Positions 13,664 to 29,200 of a stretch of 32,000 bases of DNA are shown here, in pieces. The position numbers and the translations under genes are program-made. Every line of letters starts with the position of its first letter. Position 1 is the stretch's first letter. A model generated the notes under the pieces. That model was given only the letters and a program-made list of their open reading frames with translations, was not told the origin of the DNA and made no database searches. The DNA is from an archaeon (GTDB taxonomy: Archaea; Iainarchaeota; Iainarchaeia; Iainarchaeales; JANQMZ01), in contig JANQMZ010000007.1 in assembly GCA_028279805.1 (NCBI GenBank), positions 150,001-182,000 on the forward strand, read 5' to 3'.

Positions 13664-14225
13664 CCAGTTTTTTGACAAGTTTATTTTTACAAACGGCATT
13701 AAATACAAGCATTCAAATTTTTTTCTGCACGAAATTCCTTTTTTGATAATGCCTGTTGATTTAATGATTGGCATTGTTGGCAATGAAAATGAAGAATTTC
13801 AACGCGAGTTGTATTATTCTGTTAAAGAATCAGTGAAAAAAAATCTGGTTAAAAGGTTTGGAATTAATTTTAAGTTTGATGAAAAGCAAAAATTTGTTCA
13901 ATTTTTGGAAAAGTTTTTTGTCGCATCCGGTTGGGGTGATATTCATAATGTTGACATTGATTTTGAAAAAAAACGCGCATTGTTAAACTTGAATCATAAT
14001 CCTTTTTCCTCTCATGTCAAACCCAAACCAAAAAATCCGGCGGACCATTTAATGCGCGGAATTTTAGCCGGCATTTTTTCTTTTGCTTTTGATTCCGACA
14101 TTGAATGTGTTGAAGTTGAATGCCTGATTAAAGGAGATAACAGATGTGAATTTGTTTTGCAAAGGCCTAAAGAACTGGATCTGGAAAAAGAAACAACCAG
14201 GAGGCAAATCAGGTTAAAAATTTAA
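13656..14225 (+). CDS. V4R (4-vinyl reductase-type) small-molecule-binding domain protein
   Basis: The C-terminal signature is HLMRGILAGIFSFAF...ECVEVECLIKGDNRCEFVL (C-x7-C-E-F). I prefer the ATG at 13656, which overlaps the upstream stop as ATGCTTAA and gives 189 aa, the same length as the second V4R protein. Confidence 0.7.
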   Translation: MLNQFFDKFIFTNGIKYKHSNFFLHEIPFLIMPVDLMIGIVGNENEEFQRELYYSVKESVKKNLVKRFGINFKFDEKQKFVQFLEKFFVASGWGDIHNVDIDFEKKRALLNLNHNPFSSHVKPKPKNPADHLMRGILAGIFSFAFDSDIECVEVECLIKGDNRCEFVLQRPKELDLEKETTRRQIRLKI

Positions 14226-16327: not shown

Positions 16328-17005
16328 ATGGGCAGACATGTTTTAATAATTCCTGATGGAAACAGAAGATACGCTAGACATCATGGTATGAGTAATGAAC
16401 AGGTTTATGCTTTTGTTGCCAAAAAGACAACTGTTGATTTGATGAAATATTTTTTAATCGATAGAGAATTTTCTGATTTTAGTATTTTTTTGTTGTCTAG
16501 AAGTAATTTAACTAGAAGAAGAAACGAGGAAGTTGATCCCATTATTGAAGCTCAGCAAAGAATGTGTTATGATTTAATGGATGATCCTTTTTTTGAAGAA
16601 AAAAACATAAAGTTTAATGTTTATGGAGATATGAGTATTTTGCCTGGGAGATATAGAAGAGCTTTAAAAAGATTGGTTGAAAAATCGGAACATAGAGTTG
16701 GTAAAAATTGTAATTTTTTGGTTGCTTATGATGGAACTTATGAACTGATTAGTGCAGTTAAAAAAATTAATGGAGATTTTGAAAAAATAAATGAATCAAA
16801 TTTTTACAATTATTTAGATTTAAATAAATCTGTAGATTTACTTATAAGGACTGGTTTTGAAAAAAGGCTTTCAGGTGCTCCATTGCCTCAAACATCTTTT
16901 TCAGAACTTTATTTTGCAAGTTTTTATTATCCCCAATTTACTGTTGAAAAAGCTGAGGCAATAATAAAAGAATTTGACAAAAGAGACAGAAGATTCGGAA
17001 AATAA
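16328..17005 (+). CDS. uppS: cis-Prenyltransferase (undecaprenyl-diphosphate synthase family)
   Basis: The motifs LIIPDGNRRYA, DLLIRTGFEKRLSG and C-terminal RRFGK match the UppS family signature. Confidence 0.85.
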   Translation: MGRHVLIIPDGNRRYARHHGMSNEQVYAFVAKKTTVDLMKYFLIDREFSDFSIFLLSRSNLTRRRNEEVDPIIEAQQRMCYDLMDDPFFEEKNIKFNVYGDMSILPGRYRRALKRLVEKSEHRVGKNCNFLVAYDGTYELISAVKKINGDFEKINESNFYNYLDLNKSVDLLIRTGFEKRLSGAPLPQTSFSELYFASFYYPQFTVEKAEAIIKEFDKRDRRFGK

Positions 17006-17006
17006 G

Positions 17007-17032
17007 AAAATCAACCATTTGGTTGATTTTTT
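17007..17032. promoter_or_regulatory. Palindromic element A (AAAATCAACC-ATTT-GGTTGATTTT, then a T-run)
   Basis: It has 10-nt perfect inverted arms. It sits 2 nt after the uppS stop, so it could act as a hairpin-plus-T terminator, and about 30 nt upstream of the first paralog ATG. The arms recur at 21461-21500 and 22969-23008. Confidence 0.5.
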
Positions 17033-20468: not shown

Positions 20469-20493
20469 TGACTATTAATTTTAAGTGATTTTT

Positions 20494-21312
20494 ATGAGTT
20501 ATCAGGATTTGGAAACAGTTGGAGGAAAAAATTCAACTAAAAATTTAATTATAAATGCTTTAAGATTTAAGAACGATTTTACTACAAAACAGATTTATTT
20601 TTTTTTAAAAAAAGAATTTGGTTTAAATTCCTCTTATCAATCCGTTCACAAAGCATTGAAAGAACTTTCAAGTGAAAAAATTGTTTTTAAAAAAAACAAA
20701 AAATATTTTTTAAACCGGGAATGGATTCAAAATAACAAAATGTTTTTTGAAGAATTAGCTGATAAAAAAGTGGATTTAACACGACTTGAAAATCAAACAA
20801 TTAGCTTGTCTTTCAATTCTTATCATGAATTTATGGATAAAATGCTTGACATTTTTGCAAAAGAAAGAGAATTATTTCCAAACAATTTATGCGTAACTTA
20901 TCAAAATCATTTATACTGGACTATGAGTTTATCCAAAAATCAGTATAACAAGCTTAAAATTTTAGGTTCTCATGGAGGCTATATTGCCTGCAATGGAAAT
21001 TCTTTTTTTGACAAAGTTTTGGCAACAATATACAAAAAAGTGGGCTATGATGTGAAAACAGGTGTAAATTATTCAAACAATTTTGATTTTGTTGTATATG
21101 GAAACATAATTCATCAAATATTTTTTTCAGATAAACAAAAAAAAGAAATTAATATAATTTCAAAAAAATCAAAAAAAACTGAAGATATCTTTGAACAAGG
21201 ATTTCATGAAAAACTTTTTGAAAAACCCGGAAAAATAAATGTAGTTATTTTCAAAAATAAAGAATTGGCAGAACAACTGACAAATGATGTTTTAAAACAG
21301 GTTAAAAATTGA
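20494..21312 (+). CDS. Paralog 5 of 5 (most divergent)
   Basis: 272 aa from the ATG at 20494 (the ORF track uses the GTG at 20485). Family blocks present are SSYQSVHKALKELSSEKIV, YQNHLYWTMSL, FDFVVYGNIIHQIFF and INVVIFKNKELAEQLTNDVLKQV. Confidence 0.75.
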   Translation: MSYQDLETVGGKNSTKNLIINALRFKNDFTTKQIYFFLKKEFGLNSSYQSVHKALKELSSEKIVFKKNKKYFLNREWIQNNKMFFEELADKKVDLTRLENQTISLSFNSYHEFMDKMLDIFAKERELFPNNLCVTYQNHLYWTMSLSKNQYNKLKILGSHGGYIACNGNSFFDKVLATIYKKVGYDVKTGVNYSNNFDFVVYGNIIHQIFFSDKQKKEINIISKKSKKTEDIFEQGFHEKLFEKPGKINVVIFKNKELAEQLTNDVLKQVKN

Positions 21313-21460
21313 AAGAGGCCTCAATCTGAAGCCTCCTCTGCCTTTCAAGGGGTACCAACTCTCTCCTTGTAAAGTGGATAGGGCGCCCCTGTTGGAGCGC
21401 CGGAGCAGGCATCTCTCGCACGAGAGTAAACGCCTGAAATAACTCTGACGCGAGTAGTAA
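21313..21460. ncRNA. GC-rich, highly structured RNA candidate of unknown class; strand unresolved
   Basis: This stretch is about half G+C by eye, against AT-rich flanks. Nested helices can be read directly: 21315-19/21331-35, 21342-50/21365-74, 21382-88/21394-401, and 21406-10/21432-36 enclosing CTCTC-GCAC-GAGAG. Hairpin-plus-T-run terminators exist for either orientation. Only implausible Arg/Leu-rich ORFs cross it. Confidence 0.5.
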
Positions 21461-21500
21461 TATACCTTTGGTTGAAAAAAAATCAACCAAATAGTTGATT
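21461..21500. promoter_or_regulatory. Palindromic element B (TTTGGTTGA-A7-TCAACCAAA-TA-GTTGATT)
   Basis: It contains three TCAACC/GGTTGA half-sites. Its reverse complement aligns with element C at 30 of 40 positions by hand. It abuts a TATA-like GGTATATTA on the minus strand and a T8 run (21503-21511) on the plus strand. Confidence 0.5.
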
Positions 21501-21584
21501 ATTGTTTTTTTAGGATAAGAATATCTTGCCATCGGTTTTCATACAATCTGGAAAAAAGTATTTATTGAACAAAAAAAGCTATGG

Positions 21585-21652: not shown

Positions 21653-22408
21653 TTGGGTAAAAAAAGACCAAAAAAAACAACAAGTCGTTCAAATAATTCA
21701 GGCAATTCTAATACTTATGTTATTGCCGGAGCAATTGTTCTGGCCGGAATAATAATCGGAGGGGCAGTATTTTTAACAAGCACTCCGGGAACAACTCTGC
21801 CTCCAAGCGGAAACAATGGAAATGGCGGAGGAGGGCATGGAAATGATGCCACTGTTTCAATGAAAGCTTTGCTTGAATCAGAATCAGCTGCAACTTTGGG
21901 AAACGAAGATGCACCGGTTGTTTTGATTGAATTTTCAGATTATGAATGTCCTTTCTGCAGGCAATGGTCTAATCAGTCAAAAGCACAGTTGGAAGCAGAA
22001 TATATTGACACAGGAAAAGTTTTGTTTGTATTCAAAGATTTCCCACTTACAAGAATTCATCCGTTTGCGGTAACCGCAGCTCATTCAGCACGATGTGCAG
22101 GAGAACAAGGCAAATACTGGGAAATGCATGACGCAATTTTTGATTTGTTTGGGCAAAACAATTTTTCACAGGAAACAGTTGAACAAACAGCTCAGGATTT
22201 GGAATTAAATGTAGCAGACTTTCAGGCATGCAATGAATCAGCAAAATTTTTGTCAAACATTCAGCAAAACTTTGATGAAGGAGCAAGCAATGGCATAACA
22301 GGCACGCCGGGATTTTTAATCGGAACACCTAACGGAACTGCAAGACTTATTTCAGGAGCACAGCCTTACTCTGTTTTCAAACAAGCAATTGATTCACTAT
22401 TGGCATAA
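21653..22408 (+). CDS. Membrane-anchored DsbA-family thiol:disulfide oxidoreductase
   Basis: It has a TTG start 4 nt after GAGGTGA. An N-terminal basic segment and TM helix (YVIAGAIVLAGIIIGGAVFL) are followed by a Gly/Asn linker. The thioredoxin fold carries the active site EFSDYECPFCRQW and a C-terminal GTPGFLIG. Confidence 0.8.
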   Translation: MGKKRPKKTTSRSNNSGNSNTYVIAGAIVLAGIIIGGAVFLTSTPGTTLPPSGNNGNGGGGHGNDATVSMKALLESESAATLGNEDAPVVLIEFSDYECPFCRQWSNQSKAQLEAEYIDTGKVLFVFKDFPLTRIHPFAVTAAHSARCAGEQGKYWEMHDAIFDLFGQNNFSQETVEQTAQDLELNVADFQACNESAKFLSNIQQNFDEGASNGITGTPGFLIGTPNGTARLISGAQPYSVFKQAIDSLLA

Positions 22409-22968: not shown

Positions 22969-23008
22969 AATCAACTAAATGGTTGATAAAAAATCAACCA
23001 AACGTATT
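22969..23008. promoter_or_regulatory. Palindromic element C (AATCAAC-TAAAT-GGTTGAT-A5-ATCAACCAAA), immediately upstream of a TATA-like GTATTTAAG
   Basis: It has three TCAACC/GGTTGA half-sites in the same order and spacing as the reverse complement of element B. The TATA-like box lies about 50 nt upstream of the ATG at 23058, and a GGGGGAGTGG ribosome-binding site lies between them. Confidence 0.5.
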
Positions 23009-23057
23009 TAAGACAATGTATGGTAATCCTACAAGCAGGGGGGAGTGGAATGAAAAA

Positions 23058-26243: not shown

Positions 26244-29200
26244 AAAAGCATTATGTATTTTTTTTTCTTGCACTAATTTTTTCCTTTGCTTTAGTTGGAT
26301 CTGACATAAATAATTCAGAAAATAACACTTACAAGCTTCAAGAAAGAAGCTATTTGACAATGCTTTCACCTAGCAATGAAATGGAAATGCATCCCGACCC
26401 TTCCTTCGAAATAAAATTATTAAATGGATTTTTTATCCCTAAAGCTGGTGTTGGGATAGATATAACCAATATTGAAAAAGAAAATACTGGAGAAGAAATT
26501 TATGCTTTGGTTCAATTTCAAAGAGGCTTGATTGATTCTGATGCCCATGATTTTCTTGAGAATCAAAATTCTTTAGAATTGGGCCGTGTTCCTGACAATA
26601 CCTATGTTATCAAAATCCCAATCAACAATCTGAAAAATTTTTTTGAAAGTTATCTGATTAGATGGATCAATATTCTTCAACCAGAACAGAAAATCCATCC
26701 GAATATAGCTGAACAAGATGAATCCTTGGAAGTTTTGGTCACAGCATTTGAAAACATGACTCAAGATCAAATAGAAAAAATTTCTGTTTTGTCAGAAGAA
26801 GTGATTTTTGATGGAAAAGACTCTGAATCAATTCTTGTGAAAGCCACTTATTCAAATATTTTTAAAATTGCCAAGTTGAACTTTATTCAATGGATTTCAC
26901 CTAGAGGAACAGGTAAAACATCTCTAGACAACAGTGCAAGAGTTATCTCAGTTCCTTATGTCTGGTCTCAGGGAAATACTGCTTCCGATGTCACTGTTGG
27001 GATAATAGATTCTGGACTTGATTTTGATCATCCACACTTTTTTAATCCAACTATTCCAATCTACAAATCTAAGGATTGGGTTGATGGGGGAATGAATCCA
27101 GAGGATGAACAGGTGCATGGTACCCTTATGGCTGGAACTATTTCTGGATCTGGTAGTAGTTCTTCAAGCTCAAGATATTATAAAGGCATTTCAAATAGAG
27201 CAGCTTTGACAATAGAAAAGGCTTTCGATAGTCATGATGACTGGGTAGCACCACATCCTGCTTTAAATCCTGTTTGGAATTGGATATTGGATCCTAATCA
27301 AAATTTTAGTTTTAATGATAATCAAGATGCAGATATAATAAACAATAGTTGGGCACATTATTTTACTTATGGTGCCTATGAGCAAGCGTCTCAAAAAGTT
27401 GATAAAGTTGTTAGAGGAGAATTATCAAATGGAAAAAAAATTGTAGTTGTTTTTGGTTCAGGAAATGATCATGCAATTTCTAATGGGGCTGGAGTTGAAC
27501 CCCCCGCCACTGCAAAAAATGCTATAACTGTTGGTGCCAGTGCTGATTTCAGATCTTCAACTGAAGAATCTCAATATTCTCAGGATTTTTGTCCGCCTGA
27601 TTCACGCTGTAACTACGACAGTTTGAATGGATATGTAATGGAATATAGTGGAAGGGGCACTCTTGATGGAAGAGTCAAACCAGACATTTTAGCTCCAGGA
27701 TCCACCACTTTTGGTCCAGTAGCTCAAACTACAGTATATGCTTCTGGTGATGGAACAAGTGCTGCTGCTGCGCATGTTTCTGCTGTAGCTGCTCAAATCT
27801 TGCAAGCATATTCAACGGCATCACCTGCCTTGGTGAAGGCTCTTCTTGTCAACAATGCAGTGGGAGCTGGAACAACAGACAACAAGAATTATGATGAAGG
27901 ATGGGGGAGACTAAGCGCATTTGAATCAATTTACTGGTTAACGGATGATTACACCGCCACGTTCAACGAATTTAATCTTGGTGGACCAGGTACAGGATTA
28001 AGCAATGAAGGATATCTCGAAAGATATGTTCCTGCAGATGCAGACAGAATTGTTGTTACAATGGCTTATGATGATGAACCGTCATTTCTTTTGGGTTCTG
28101 TTCCAACTCTTAAAAACAATATTGATTTGTATTTGCAGAAACCCAATGGGTCTCAGTTGTATGTTAACGATGATTCTGTGAATAATGTTGAAAAATATGT
28201 GATTGATGATCCTGATGAAGGGAATTGGAGATTTTATGTAAAATTTGTTAATCCACAATGGTTAAGTACTCAAGATGCGGCGATGAACCTAAAAATTATT
28301 AGGAAAACTCAGCCATCTTCAACAGATATTTTGAGTACTTCTGGTCCAATTAATGTTGATCAAGGAGAAAATTTCAAAATTACTGCGAATGTTCATGCTG
28401 TTGGATTGGTTAACTATGATATGTGGACAAGAATAGATGTTCCAAATGGACTAACCTTGACTTTGCCTGGTTTTTATGACAGTATGGATGGGGATAAAAA
28501 TGTGCTAGGTGATATCCCTGCAGATGTTTTTGTGAATACTGGTGATTGGGTTATAAGAGCTGATGATCCTGGGACTTATAATGTTAGAATTTATGCACAG
28601 GGAAAAAGAAAAGATGGATCAAATATTTTTGAAGTTGATACAACAGTTGTGAATGTAAATCCAACAGAAAAAGACCCTGGAGATTTATGTTCTTCACATT
28701 CTGAGTGTGGAACTGGTTATTGTGAGGGTTCTGCTTCAAATCCTGCAAGATGTTGTGTTGCGGTTCCTCCACAAGATGGTTGGTATGGAGGAGGCAATAC
28801 GAGTACAGCGCAATGTGGTGTTGTTGATAATGATGCTGCATCTATTTACAGGGATTATTATTGTGATGCTTCCGGTTCTGCTCAAATAGAGCCAACAGAT
28901 GCCCAGGATTGTGATTCAAGTGATGGTTGGTATGGTGGTGGAAATACTGCTGGTTGTGGTGATGACCCTTCGTCAATTTGGAGAGATTATTATGTAACAA
29001 CCAATGACAACACTTGCACTTATACTGAATCTTGTAATGGAAACAATTCTTTTGATTGTGATGCCCAGGATGCTTGTGCTCCTTATTGCAGCGGTAATAC
29101 TGCAATTTTTGGAACGGATTATTATGTTGTTGAAAATACCAACACGTGCACTTCAATTGAAGAGAGTGAGGATTGTACTGTAAAAGATTCAACTGATTCT

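Follow-up and report, generated by a model that had tools for sequence, protein, structure and literature searches.

What is the short G+C-rich block that stands between an array of winged-helix paralogs and a DsbA-like gene in the genome of an archaeon of the order Iainarchaeales? The block lies in a 32,000-nucleotide (nt) stretch of contig JANQMZ010000007.1 (GenBank assembly GCA_028279805.1, positions 150,001 to 182,000 of the forward strand), which we call the window; positions are those of the window except where the prefix C9 marks the contig numbering of the host genome. An earlier, sequence-only reading had proposed a multi-helix structured RNA outside the known classes and had left its strand undecided. 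Our analysis indicates, with a probability of roughly three in four, that the block is an orphan copy of a new family of structured 5'-leader RNAs that belongs to one DPANN order (Iainarchaeales-like) and is absent from Rfam. At that same level of confidence, it would be transcribed from the minus strand as an RNA of ~130 nt, from a conserved operator-controlled archaeal promoter to a hairpin followed by a T-run.

The base composition of the block was as first described. Positions 21313-21440 contain 51–59% G+C in a genome (876 kb, 93.7% complete) that averages 33.7%, and 100-nt segments over 21300-21449 range from 0.51 to 0.56, against 0.18–0.29 in the flanks. On the 853-kb contig that carries the window, where mean G+C is 0.337 (standard deviation 0.065), the peak at this island is 0.59. 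It is one of about six islands on the contig with G+C of at least 0.52 outside long open reading frames (ORFs) and tRNA or rRNA genes, and its G+C-rich core is single-copy in the host genome.

On its minus-strand side the block is preceded by a palindromic operator joined to a TATA box. The pattern GGTTGA-N7-TCAACC-N3-GGTATATTA is matched exactly at 21488-21458(-), in all 21 specified positions, and with up to two mismatches it occurs at ~115 sites in 67 of 196 genomes of the same order; a reversed-pattern control gave none. BLAST against the 40 nearest genomes, all from other families of the order, returned many matches to the A/T-rich stretch 21439-21512, often several per genome and at contig ends. 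Downstream of the TATA box the same positions are kept at promoter sites of other genomes, as in ACACTCGAGACAGGGATAT and ATCGCCGAGACAGCGTTAT. Where long ATG-started ORFs begin within 60 nt of such a site, 14 of 39 do so 23–27 nt past the end of the TATA box, as leaderless mRNAs. These ORFs calibrate the transcription start: position 23 here is A21435, where the first helix begins. The fold at this locus starts at position 22 past the TATA box, as it does in relatives.

The operator-promoter cassette has further copies. Within the window it occurs at 16999-17032, before the array of five winged-helix paralogs, and at 22981-23011, before a gene for an 823-residue lectin-like surface protein; a copy at C9:727223-727253 precedes a gene for a signal-peptide protein. 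The genes that it drives in other genomes code for secreted proteins or belong to several winged-helix types, and their transcripts are often leaderless mRNAs.

Comparison of what follows this promoter in relatives revealed the leader family. When 400 nt were taken downstream of 118 distinct promoter sites, 45 sites were found to lead into a small winged-helix gene (90–116 codons), and 35 of these genes start at least 85 nt past the TATA box. Their leaders, each 65 nt long or more, are rich in G+C. When folded singly by minimum free energy, they show a common layout, a helix P1 around a hairpin P1a, followed by a hairpin P2. P1 starts ~22 nt (about 22–24) past the TATA box and takes the forms CGGGC/GCCUG, CAGGC/GCCUG, GGCAG/CUGCC and GCAGA/UCUGC, with a common CAG/CUG core and then CUGCYC; the enclosed P1a is variable. 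P2 is a strong hairpin 3–6 nt past P1 whose sequence differs wholly between genomes while its pairing is kept. Between P2 and the start codon lie an A/U-rich linker and then a ribosome-binding site rich in G; one relative reads CCAUCCACUUACAGGGGGUUAUUGG-AUG here. The linker and ribosome-binding-site words are near-identical and in the same position in relatives, for example CCAUCCACUUACAGGGGG in leader L167. By eye, relatives also have a helix between the start-codon region and sequence ahead of the ribosome-binding site (CAUCC/GGAUG, UUCCAA/UUGGAA). In P2 the 5' arm is rich in C and can pair with the G-rich ribosome-binding site, and RNAalifold selects that pairing for the consensus when P2 is misaligned.

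A protein profile, used independently of the promoter, found 18 more genes of the small family, of which at least 13 show the same leader together with a degenerate promoter, and a search of contigs with the small protein gave seven loci, all already in the set. One member passes the Pfam cut-off for TrmB (27.9 versus 25.6 bits); the rest match MarR-, TrmB- or IclR-type models weakly, most of them below the Pfam cut-offs. Fourteen of the relatives' leaders were unmatched in Rfam at E ≤ 1, and a literature search returned nothing on such an RNA.

The leaders are structured well beyond what the promoter context alone provides. Over positions +20 to +100, 35 leaders had a median fold z-score of -2.44, compared with +0.05 for 82 further sites of this promoter (Mann-Whitney p = 4e-12); the value at our locus was -3.06. 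Uninterrupted stems of at least 8 bp were present in 54% of leaders, in 6.8% of dinucleotide shuffles and in 10% of other promoter sites. The sense strand was the more stable one in 36 of 48 leaders (Wilcoxon p = 4e-4) and had 121 G-U pairs versus 67 in antisense, a bias that points to structure at the RNA level on the transcribed strand.

Compensatory substitutions at homologous loci, which the sequence-only reading had named as a check, were also found. A plain MAFFT alignment of one subfamily shows them in P1a. MAFFT misaligns the variable hairpins when given all leaders, and for this reason covariance models were seeded from two sequences of equal length and extended by model-based alignment; a hand-made structure descriptor was too loose in an AT-rich genome (161 genome matches, 38% sensitivity). 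In alignment A9, which consists of 22 matches fitted to the covariance model, 96% of paired cells can pair, compared with 65% after shuffling and 35–52% with slid partners. Both sides change in 13 of 15 pairs, including all 10 modelled P2 pairs, and the covariation score is 0.735 versus 0.196, a value reached by 0 of 500 shuffles. These figures are inflated, because A9 is fitted to the model, includes a few reverse-strand hairpin rows and holds related sequences.

Does the locus in the window belong to this family? Model R1, for which two sequences of another family (genomes G028 and G172) were used, had its best match in the window, with both strands searched, at 21437-21380(-) (16.9 bits, E 0.033). 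Model R2, built from 16 rows of relatives with the host genome excluded, placed its best match at the same positions and strand (23.2 bits, E 0.0054). Every one of the 13 modelled pairs is standard, five of them in P1 and eight in P2. Both E-values are rough and apply at the scale of the window. On 94 test loci R2 matched leader loci only and no promoter site that drives another gene, and held-out true members scored 18.5–22.9 bits. The match lies directly behind the family promoter, where the prior search space is ~100 nt. A weak, non-significant second match lies at 14031-14127 (R1, plus strand, 9.2 bits; R2, minus strand, 13.6 bits, E 0.55). The locus further has in common with relatives the P1 core CAG/CUG followed by GCCUGCUC. 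The short words UCAGGCG, GCCUGCUC and AUCCACUU(U)AC stand at matching positions in relatives, having been chosen after the data were seen, and the motif YCCAN(Y)UU(W)A, likewise defined post hoc, is present in 11 of 48 leaders and at none of 81 control sites.

Several observations weigh against this assignment and against a function for the RNA. BLAST left the G+C-rich core unmatched in all 40 nearest genomes, only the promoter piece being found, and a sequence-only nhmmer profile misses this leader, whose primary-sequence similarity to relatives is weak. The bit scores of R1 and R2 would be borderline at whole-genome scale, the covariation statistics are inflated as described, and R2 misses the second copy that lacks an ORF, in genome G011 (see below), at E ≤ 1. 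The GGUGA junction motif on the 5' side of the P1 3' strand (GGUGAGCCUGCUC) is absent here, where the sequence reads GAGAUGCCUGCUCC, with AU instead; GGUGA does not define all members, since the GGUCUCUGCUCGC subfamily lacks the motif that another subfamily commonly has. In relatives the median pairing probability is moderate, at 0.61 for the ribosome-binding site and 0.41 for the start codon, and we saw in the family no unpaired conserved core of the kind typical of a ligand-binding aptamer. A search for a trans target by short complementarity gave only chance-level 11–13-mers.

The fold at this locus fits the family layout: CAGGCGU-UUA-CUCUC-GUGC-GAGAG-AUGCCUG, CUCC, GGCGCUCC-AACA-GGGGCGCC, then CUAUCCACUUUACAAGGAGAGAG-UUG (Table 1). 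All four helices drawn in the sequence-only reading are present in the minimum-free-energy fold; a long-range helix that it numbered 21331-39 with 21402-10 was correct in its letters and wrong in its positions. Positions 21436-21304, folded as RNA of the minus strand, reach -55.5 kcal/mol (z = -4.07; one of 200 dinucleotide shuffles was equally good). Comparison with relatives settles the strand, which that reading had considered open, as minus, and it bears out the minus-strand scenario it had sketched, with the TATA-like GGTATATTA behind palindromic element B, a start near 21436 and a hairpin plus TTTCAATTTTT near 21305. From the modelled fold and the promoter we infer an RNA that runs from ~21435 to ~21305, both ends being predicted. 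The 3'-most hairpin does not belong to the multi-helix core in which it had been counted. It overlaps with the stop codon (21310-21312) that ends the convergent plus-strand gene 20485-21312. The 41-nt module, which shows a hairpin and then a T-run whichever strand is read, has an 85%-identical twin at C9:114513-114551. Because the twin likewise lies between convergent genes, we regard this terminator hairpin as a generic element that could serve both strands.

Table 1. Coordinates of features at the locus (window positions) and of tRNA-flanking hairpin arrays (C9 numbering).
Feature	Position	Strand	Details
Operator and TATA promoter	21458-21500	minus	half-sites ATCAAC 21499-21494, GGTTGA 21488-21483, TCAACC 21475-21470, then AAA and GGTATATTA 21466-21458
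Promoter-proximal conserved stretch	21437-21457	minus	CTACTCGCGTCAGAGTTATTT, TATA to start
Predicted transcript, ~131-133 nt	21304-21436	minus	start C21436/A21435, end in T-run 21308-21304
P1	21436-21430 with 21412-21406	minus	CAGGCGU with AUGCCUG; minimum-free-energy fold and covariance models
P1a	21426-21422 with 21417-21413	minus	CUCUC, loop GUGC, GAGAG; inside P1
P2	21382-21401	minus	8-bp hairpin GGCGCUCC-AACA-GGGGCGCC, 4 nt past P1
Post-P2 linker	21363-21381	minus	motif UAUCCACUUUAC and Shine-Dalgarno-like AAGGAG (21368-21363)
P3-like helix	21374-21365 with 21350-21342	minus	CUUUACAAGG with CCUUGAAAG; UUG in loop
18-codon frame	21302-21358	minus	UUG 21358-21356, MVPLERQRRLQIEASFNF, stop 21304-21302; where relatives start the winged-helix gene
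Terminator-like hairpin	21304-21338	minus	12 pairs (21338-21312), then CAAUUUUU; terminator scan
Helix GAGGC/GCCTC	21312-21338		terminator hairpin
Helix CTTTCAAGG/CCTTGTAAAG	21342-21350 with 21365-21374		minimum-free-energy fold
Helix GGCGCCCC/GGAGCGCC	21382-21401		minimum-free-energy fold
Helix CAGGC/GCCTG around CTCTC-GCAC-GAGAG	21406-21436		minimum-free-energy fold
Flanking gene	20485-21312	plus	convergent on the RNA
Flanking DsbA-like gene	21653-22408		
tRNA-flanking hairpin arrays	C9:210687-210760, 400202-400325, 430300-430370, 250797-251279, 244574-244663, 834545-834640, 26945-27033		

It is very unlikely that the helices are plus-strand elements, whether as the 3' untranslated region and terminator of gene 20485-21312 or within a small RNA of that strand whose end is the T8 run at 21511. 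The block does begin right behind the plus-strand stop codon, the hairpin at 21312-21338 followed by CTCTGCCTTTC could end plus-strand transcripts, its twin also trails a plus-strand stop codon, and the plus strand of the block still folds with a z-score of -2.24. However, the minus strand folds better (-61.4 versus -53 kcal/mol; z -3.59), and at the block R1 and R2 match the minus strand only. In about 50 relatives, moreover, the element lies between promoter and gene on the strand of the promoter, and the sense strand is favoured over antisense across the family. The single T:G pair that had been offered as weak evidence for the plus strand is misleading, since 36 of 48 homologous leaders fold better in sense and with more G-U pairs.

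The prediction of a structured RNA outside the known classes that had been checked held up, while that of a free-standing, housekeeping-type RNA did not, since the block is homologous to the 5' leader of a winged-helix gene. The recommended Rfam search (Rfam 15) found no family at gathering score in the window; the G+C-rich core was unmatched at E ≤ 10, a threshold at which weak matches were confined to the A/T-rich flanks. Genes for signal recognition particle RNA, RNase P RNA and 5S rRNA are present elsewhere in the host genome. The absence of a tRNA, also stated before, was confirmed with ARAGORN, which finds none at the locus and under very lax settings gives only nonsense models. ARAGORN missed the Tyr and Trp tRNAs, and an intron-rich or split tRNA-Tyr was rejected because both are found elsewhere. 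A C/D or H/ACA guide RNA was rejected for want of a C box and a fitting ACA, with Rfam scores far below threshold. A kink-turn of the L7Ae-binding kind was rejected by inspection of the fold, in which the UUA bulge lacks G-A pairs here and relatives have an AA/UGA internal loop without a bulge. The template or variable repeat of a diversity-generating retroelement was set aside because there is no second genomic copy.

It is extremely improbable that the block is chance or foreign DNA, such as a GC-rich piece of a gene that is foreign or has decayed, or a remnant related to tRNA, with incidental hairpins. Consistent with that view, it is single-copy and has no sequence match in relatives, and two short minus-strand ORFs overlap it. 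Those frames (76 and 64 codons), however, run across the A/T-rich promoter and have translations that do not look protein-like, on which grounds we also rejected a protein-coding block. There is no tRNA signal, and tRNA-Tyr is located elsewhere. The fold z-score given above, the matches of the relatives' models and the fixed distance from a conserved promoter all speak against chance.

Inspection of the tRNA genes and of the other G+C-rich islands gave several side observations. tRNA-Tyr(GTA), with an intron of ~115 nt, was found by eye at C9:404428-404625 (+), having been missed by both ARAGORN and the Rfam tRNA model; tRNA-Trp with a 98-nt intron lies at C9:26772-26944 (+) and an intron-containing tRNA-Ala(GGC) at C9:674500-674603. 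Many tRNA genes of the host have leaders or trailers with arrays of short GC-rich hairpins (Table 1), for example CGCGGTGTTCCGCG followed by GAGAAC, and GTGCCAYTGNAARTGGCAC, and a near-identical 25-nt word, GCGGAGTAACCGTACGCAATCGGTT, stands immediately 5' of tRNA-Glu, tRNA-Thr and tRNA-Asp. Membership of our block in the class of these arrays was rejected, as there is no sequence relation and the comparative data favour the leader family. Three more non-coding G+C islands are built from consecutive hairpins (C9:600868-601008, 832840-832950 and 79267-79412), two of which carry the tRNA-adjacent hairpin type GTGCCA...TGGCAC or GCGCCAC...GTGGC. A purine-rich island at C9:602867-603024 reads as a small, very basic ORF (MGKRPRRISVRPGQGNQAGSRNLGTGNPQGQNQRNRQIRQHSRGRGKK) and may encode an unannotated small basic protein.

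We call the locus an orphan because its ribosome-binding-like AAGGAG and its UUG lead into a frame of just 18 codons. The small winged-helix protein has no homolog in the host genome by tblastn, and a profile search of that genome gave a best match (E 5e-6) that is partial and lies within a 329-codon frame, with no homolog of the small gene. G011, a genome from a different family, has a locus that likewise lacks the ORF. It has the promoter, P1 and P1a with GGUGAGUC, a 10-bp P2, the word AGAGAGUUGGU and a hairpin followed by T7; a non-homologous 17-codon frame occupies the same place, and the RNA folds with a z-score of -4.89. The G011 RNA is convergent on homologs of the window's five paralogs, each of the winged-helix-plus-190-residue type. 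G091 shares this layout and has kept the small gene, and the paralogs of G003, G028 and G117 diverge from the leader promoter. This synteny indicates that leader, small regulator, paralog array and operator form one conserved module, from which the host genome and G011 have lost the small gene. Two other markers were of no help: the UppS protein, as a measure of relatedness between G000 and G011, is blurred by paralogs, with all genomes near 30% identity, and the DsbA-like neighbour is useless as an anchor for synteny in metagenomes, its best relatives being 41–49% identical.

What, then, has become of the leader without its gene? One answer is an inert relic, in which a deletion took the winged-helix gene and left promoter, leader and first codons without a role, with the RNA perhaps still being made. 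We consider this possible without thinking it probable. The small gene is absent from a strongly reduced genome (0.88 Mb), the leader abuts a terminator module that is present elsewhere in the genome, the 18-codon frame has no conserved counterpart in the other ORF-less locus, and such loci are only 2 of ~40 leader loci; the GGUGA junction motif is lost and no trans target was found. Against a relic, the promoter agrees with the consensus at every specified position, and all pairs of P1, P1a and P2 are intact at 59% G+C, where drift in a 34% G+C genome should erode them. In addition, the same ORF-less and strongly structured layout stands beside the same paralog array in a different family. 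Because of the perfect promoter, the intact G+C-rich helices in an AT-rich genome and the mirrored copy in a distant relative, we lean slightly towards retention over a relic, and hold at even odds that the leader is kept here as a small RNA that is stable, regulated and no longer coupled to its gene.

Alternatively, the locus could be a leader-peptide unit, either a short mRNA for the 18-residue peptide that starts at UUG 21358 or a device like a bacterial attenuator, in which translation controls whether the terminator hairpin forms. This would be in keeping with the Shine-Dalgarno-like AAGGAG 4 nt ahead of the UUG, with a frame that ends within the T-run past the terminator hairpin and with the 17-codon frame that G011 has at the same place behind the common word AGAGAGUUGGU. 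However, the two peptides are alike in their first two residues only, the spacer is short, and the UUG lies in the P3 loop. Nor is there a downstream gene on the same strand to attenuate, the next gene being convergent. We regard a leader-peptide unit as improbable.

Returning to the leader family, we propose that in relatives the leader would act in cis, as a module at the very 5' end of the regulator mRNA, where it may stabilise that end and tune translation of the regulator. P3 could contribute by pairing the start region, as could P2, whose C-rich 5' arm is complementary to the G-rich ribosome-binding site. Because pairing of the start region is moderate and no conserved unpaired core is present, we favour a protein-binding or stability/translation element over a metabolite riboswitch. 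A bolder proposal, which we put forward tentatively and think rather unlikely, is that the leader represents a new class of archaeal riboregulator, responsive to a protein or ligand, that gates translation of the small TrmB-like regulator of its own regulon, and that the host and G011 copies have been re-used as trans-acting, operator-controlled small RNAs. Such RNAs might serve as decoys for a leader-binding factor or act by convergent transcription into the winged-helix paralog array.

The family resembles structured cis-regulatory 5' leaders such as riboswitches, ribosomal-protein leaders and RNA thermometers in having a conserved, covarying fold placed behind the promoter and ahead of the ribosome-binding site in a single gene family, a helix that touches the start region and a regulator gene behind an operator. 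It differs from them in having no Rfam match and no conserved unpaired core that could form a ligand pocket, in a distribution that so far covers one DPANN order, and in the gene being missing in the host. Stand-alone small RNAs derived from leaders or riboswitches are known from bacteria, among them SreA and SreB of Listeria and EutX/Rli55 of Enterococcus and Listeria. The RNA here would be similar in its leader-type fold, in a terminator soon after the sensor part and in being a separate small RNA; in contrast, SreA/SreB and EutX/Rli55 have a known ligand and demonstrated protein partners or targets in trans, whereas the present RNA is a predicted transcript. In how it was detected, by its high G+C in the genome of an AT-rich archaeon, it recalls the GC-rich non-coding RNAs HgcC, HgcE, HgcF and HgcG of Methanocaldococcus, which Klein, Misulovin and Eddy reportedly found in 2002 in a base-composition screen. 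No similarity to the Hgc RNAs was seen; their families are in Rfam, and none matched the block.

The partner gene, as distinct from the RNA, can be compared with OxsR of Haloferax volcanii, a single-domain winged-helix regulator of the TrmB family (PMC9426492). The relatives' gene also encodes a single winged-helix protein of ~100 residues and has a palindromic site next to the TATA box. The operator word here is unrelated to the OxsR motif CGGnCGnGCG, and in the available part of that source no structured leader for OxsR is reported (PMC9426492).

The leader reading accounts for one of the few unexplained non-coding G+C islands of the host, to which it assigns a strand and predicted ends, and the family comprises about 50 examples from more than ten families of one order. 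To our knowledge, very few structured cis-regulatory RNAs have been described from archaea, and we know of almost nothing on gene control at the RNA level in DPANN archaea. Tied as it is to a conserved operator-promoter and a small winged-helix regulator, the family would represent a compact regulatory circuit, made up of an operator in DNA, a leader in RNA and a regulator, and open to testing in vitro. If the copies without a gene do act in trans, they would be an archaeal counterpart of the riboswitch-derived small RNAs. The orphan copy in the host, mirrored in a distant relative, offers a natural experiment on whether a leader survives, or takes on a new role, without its gene.

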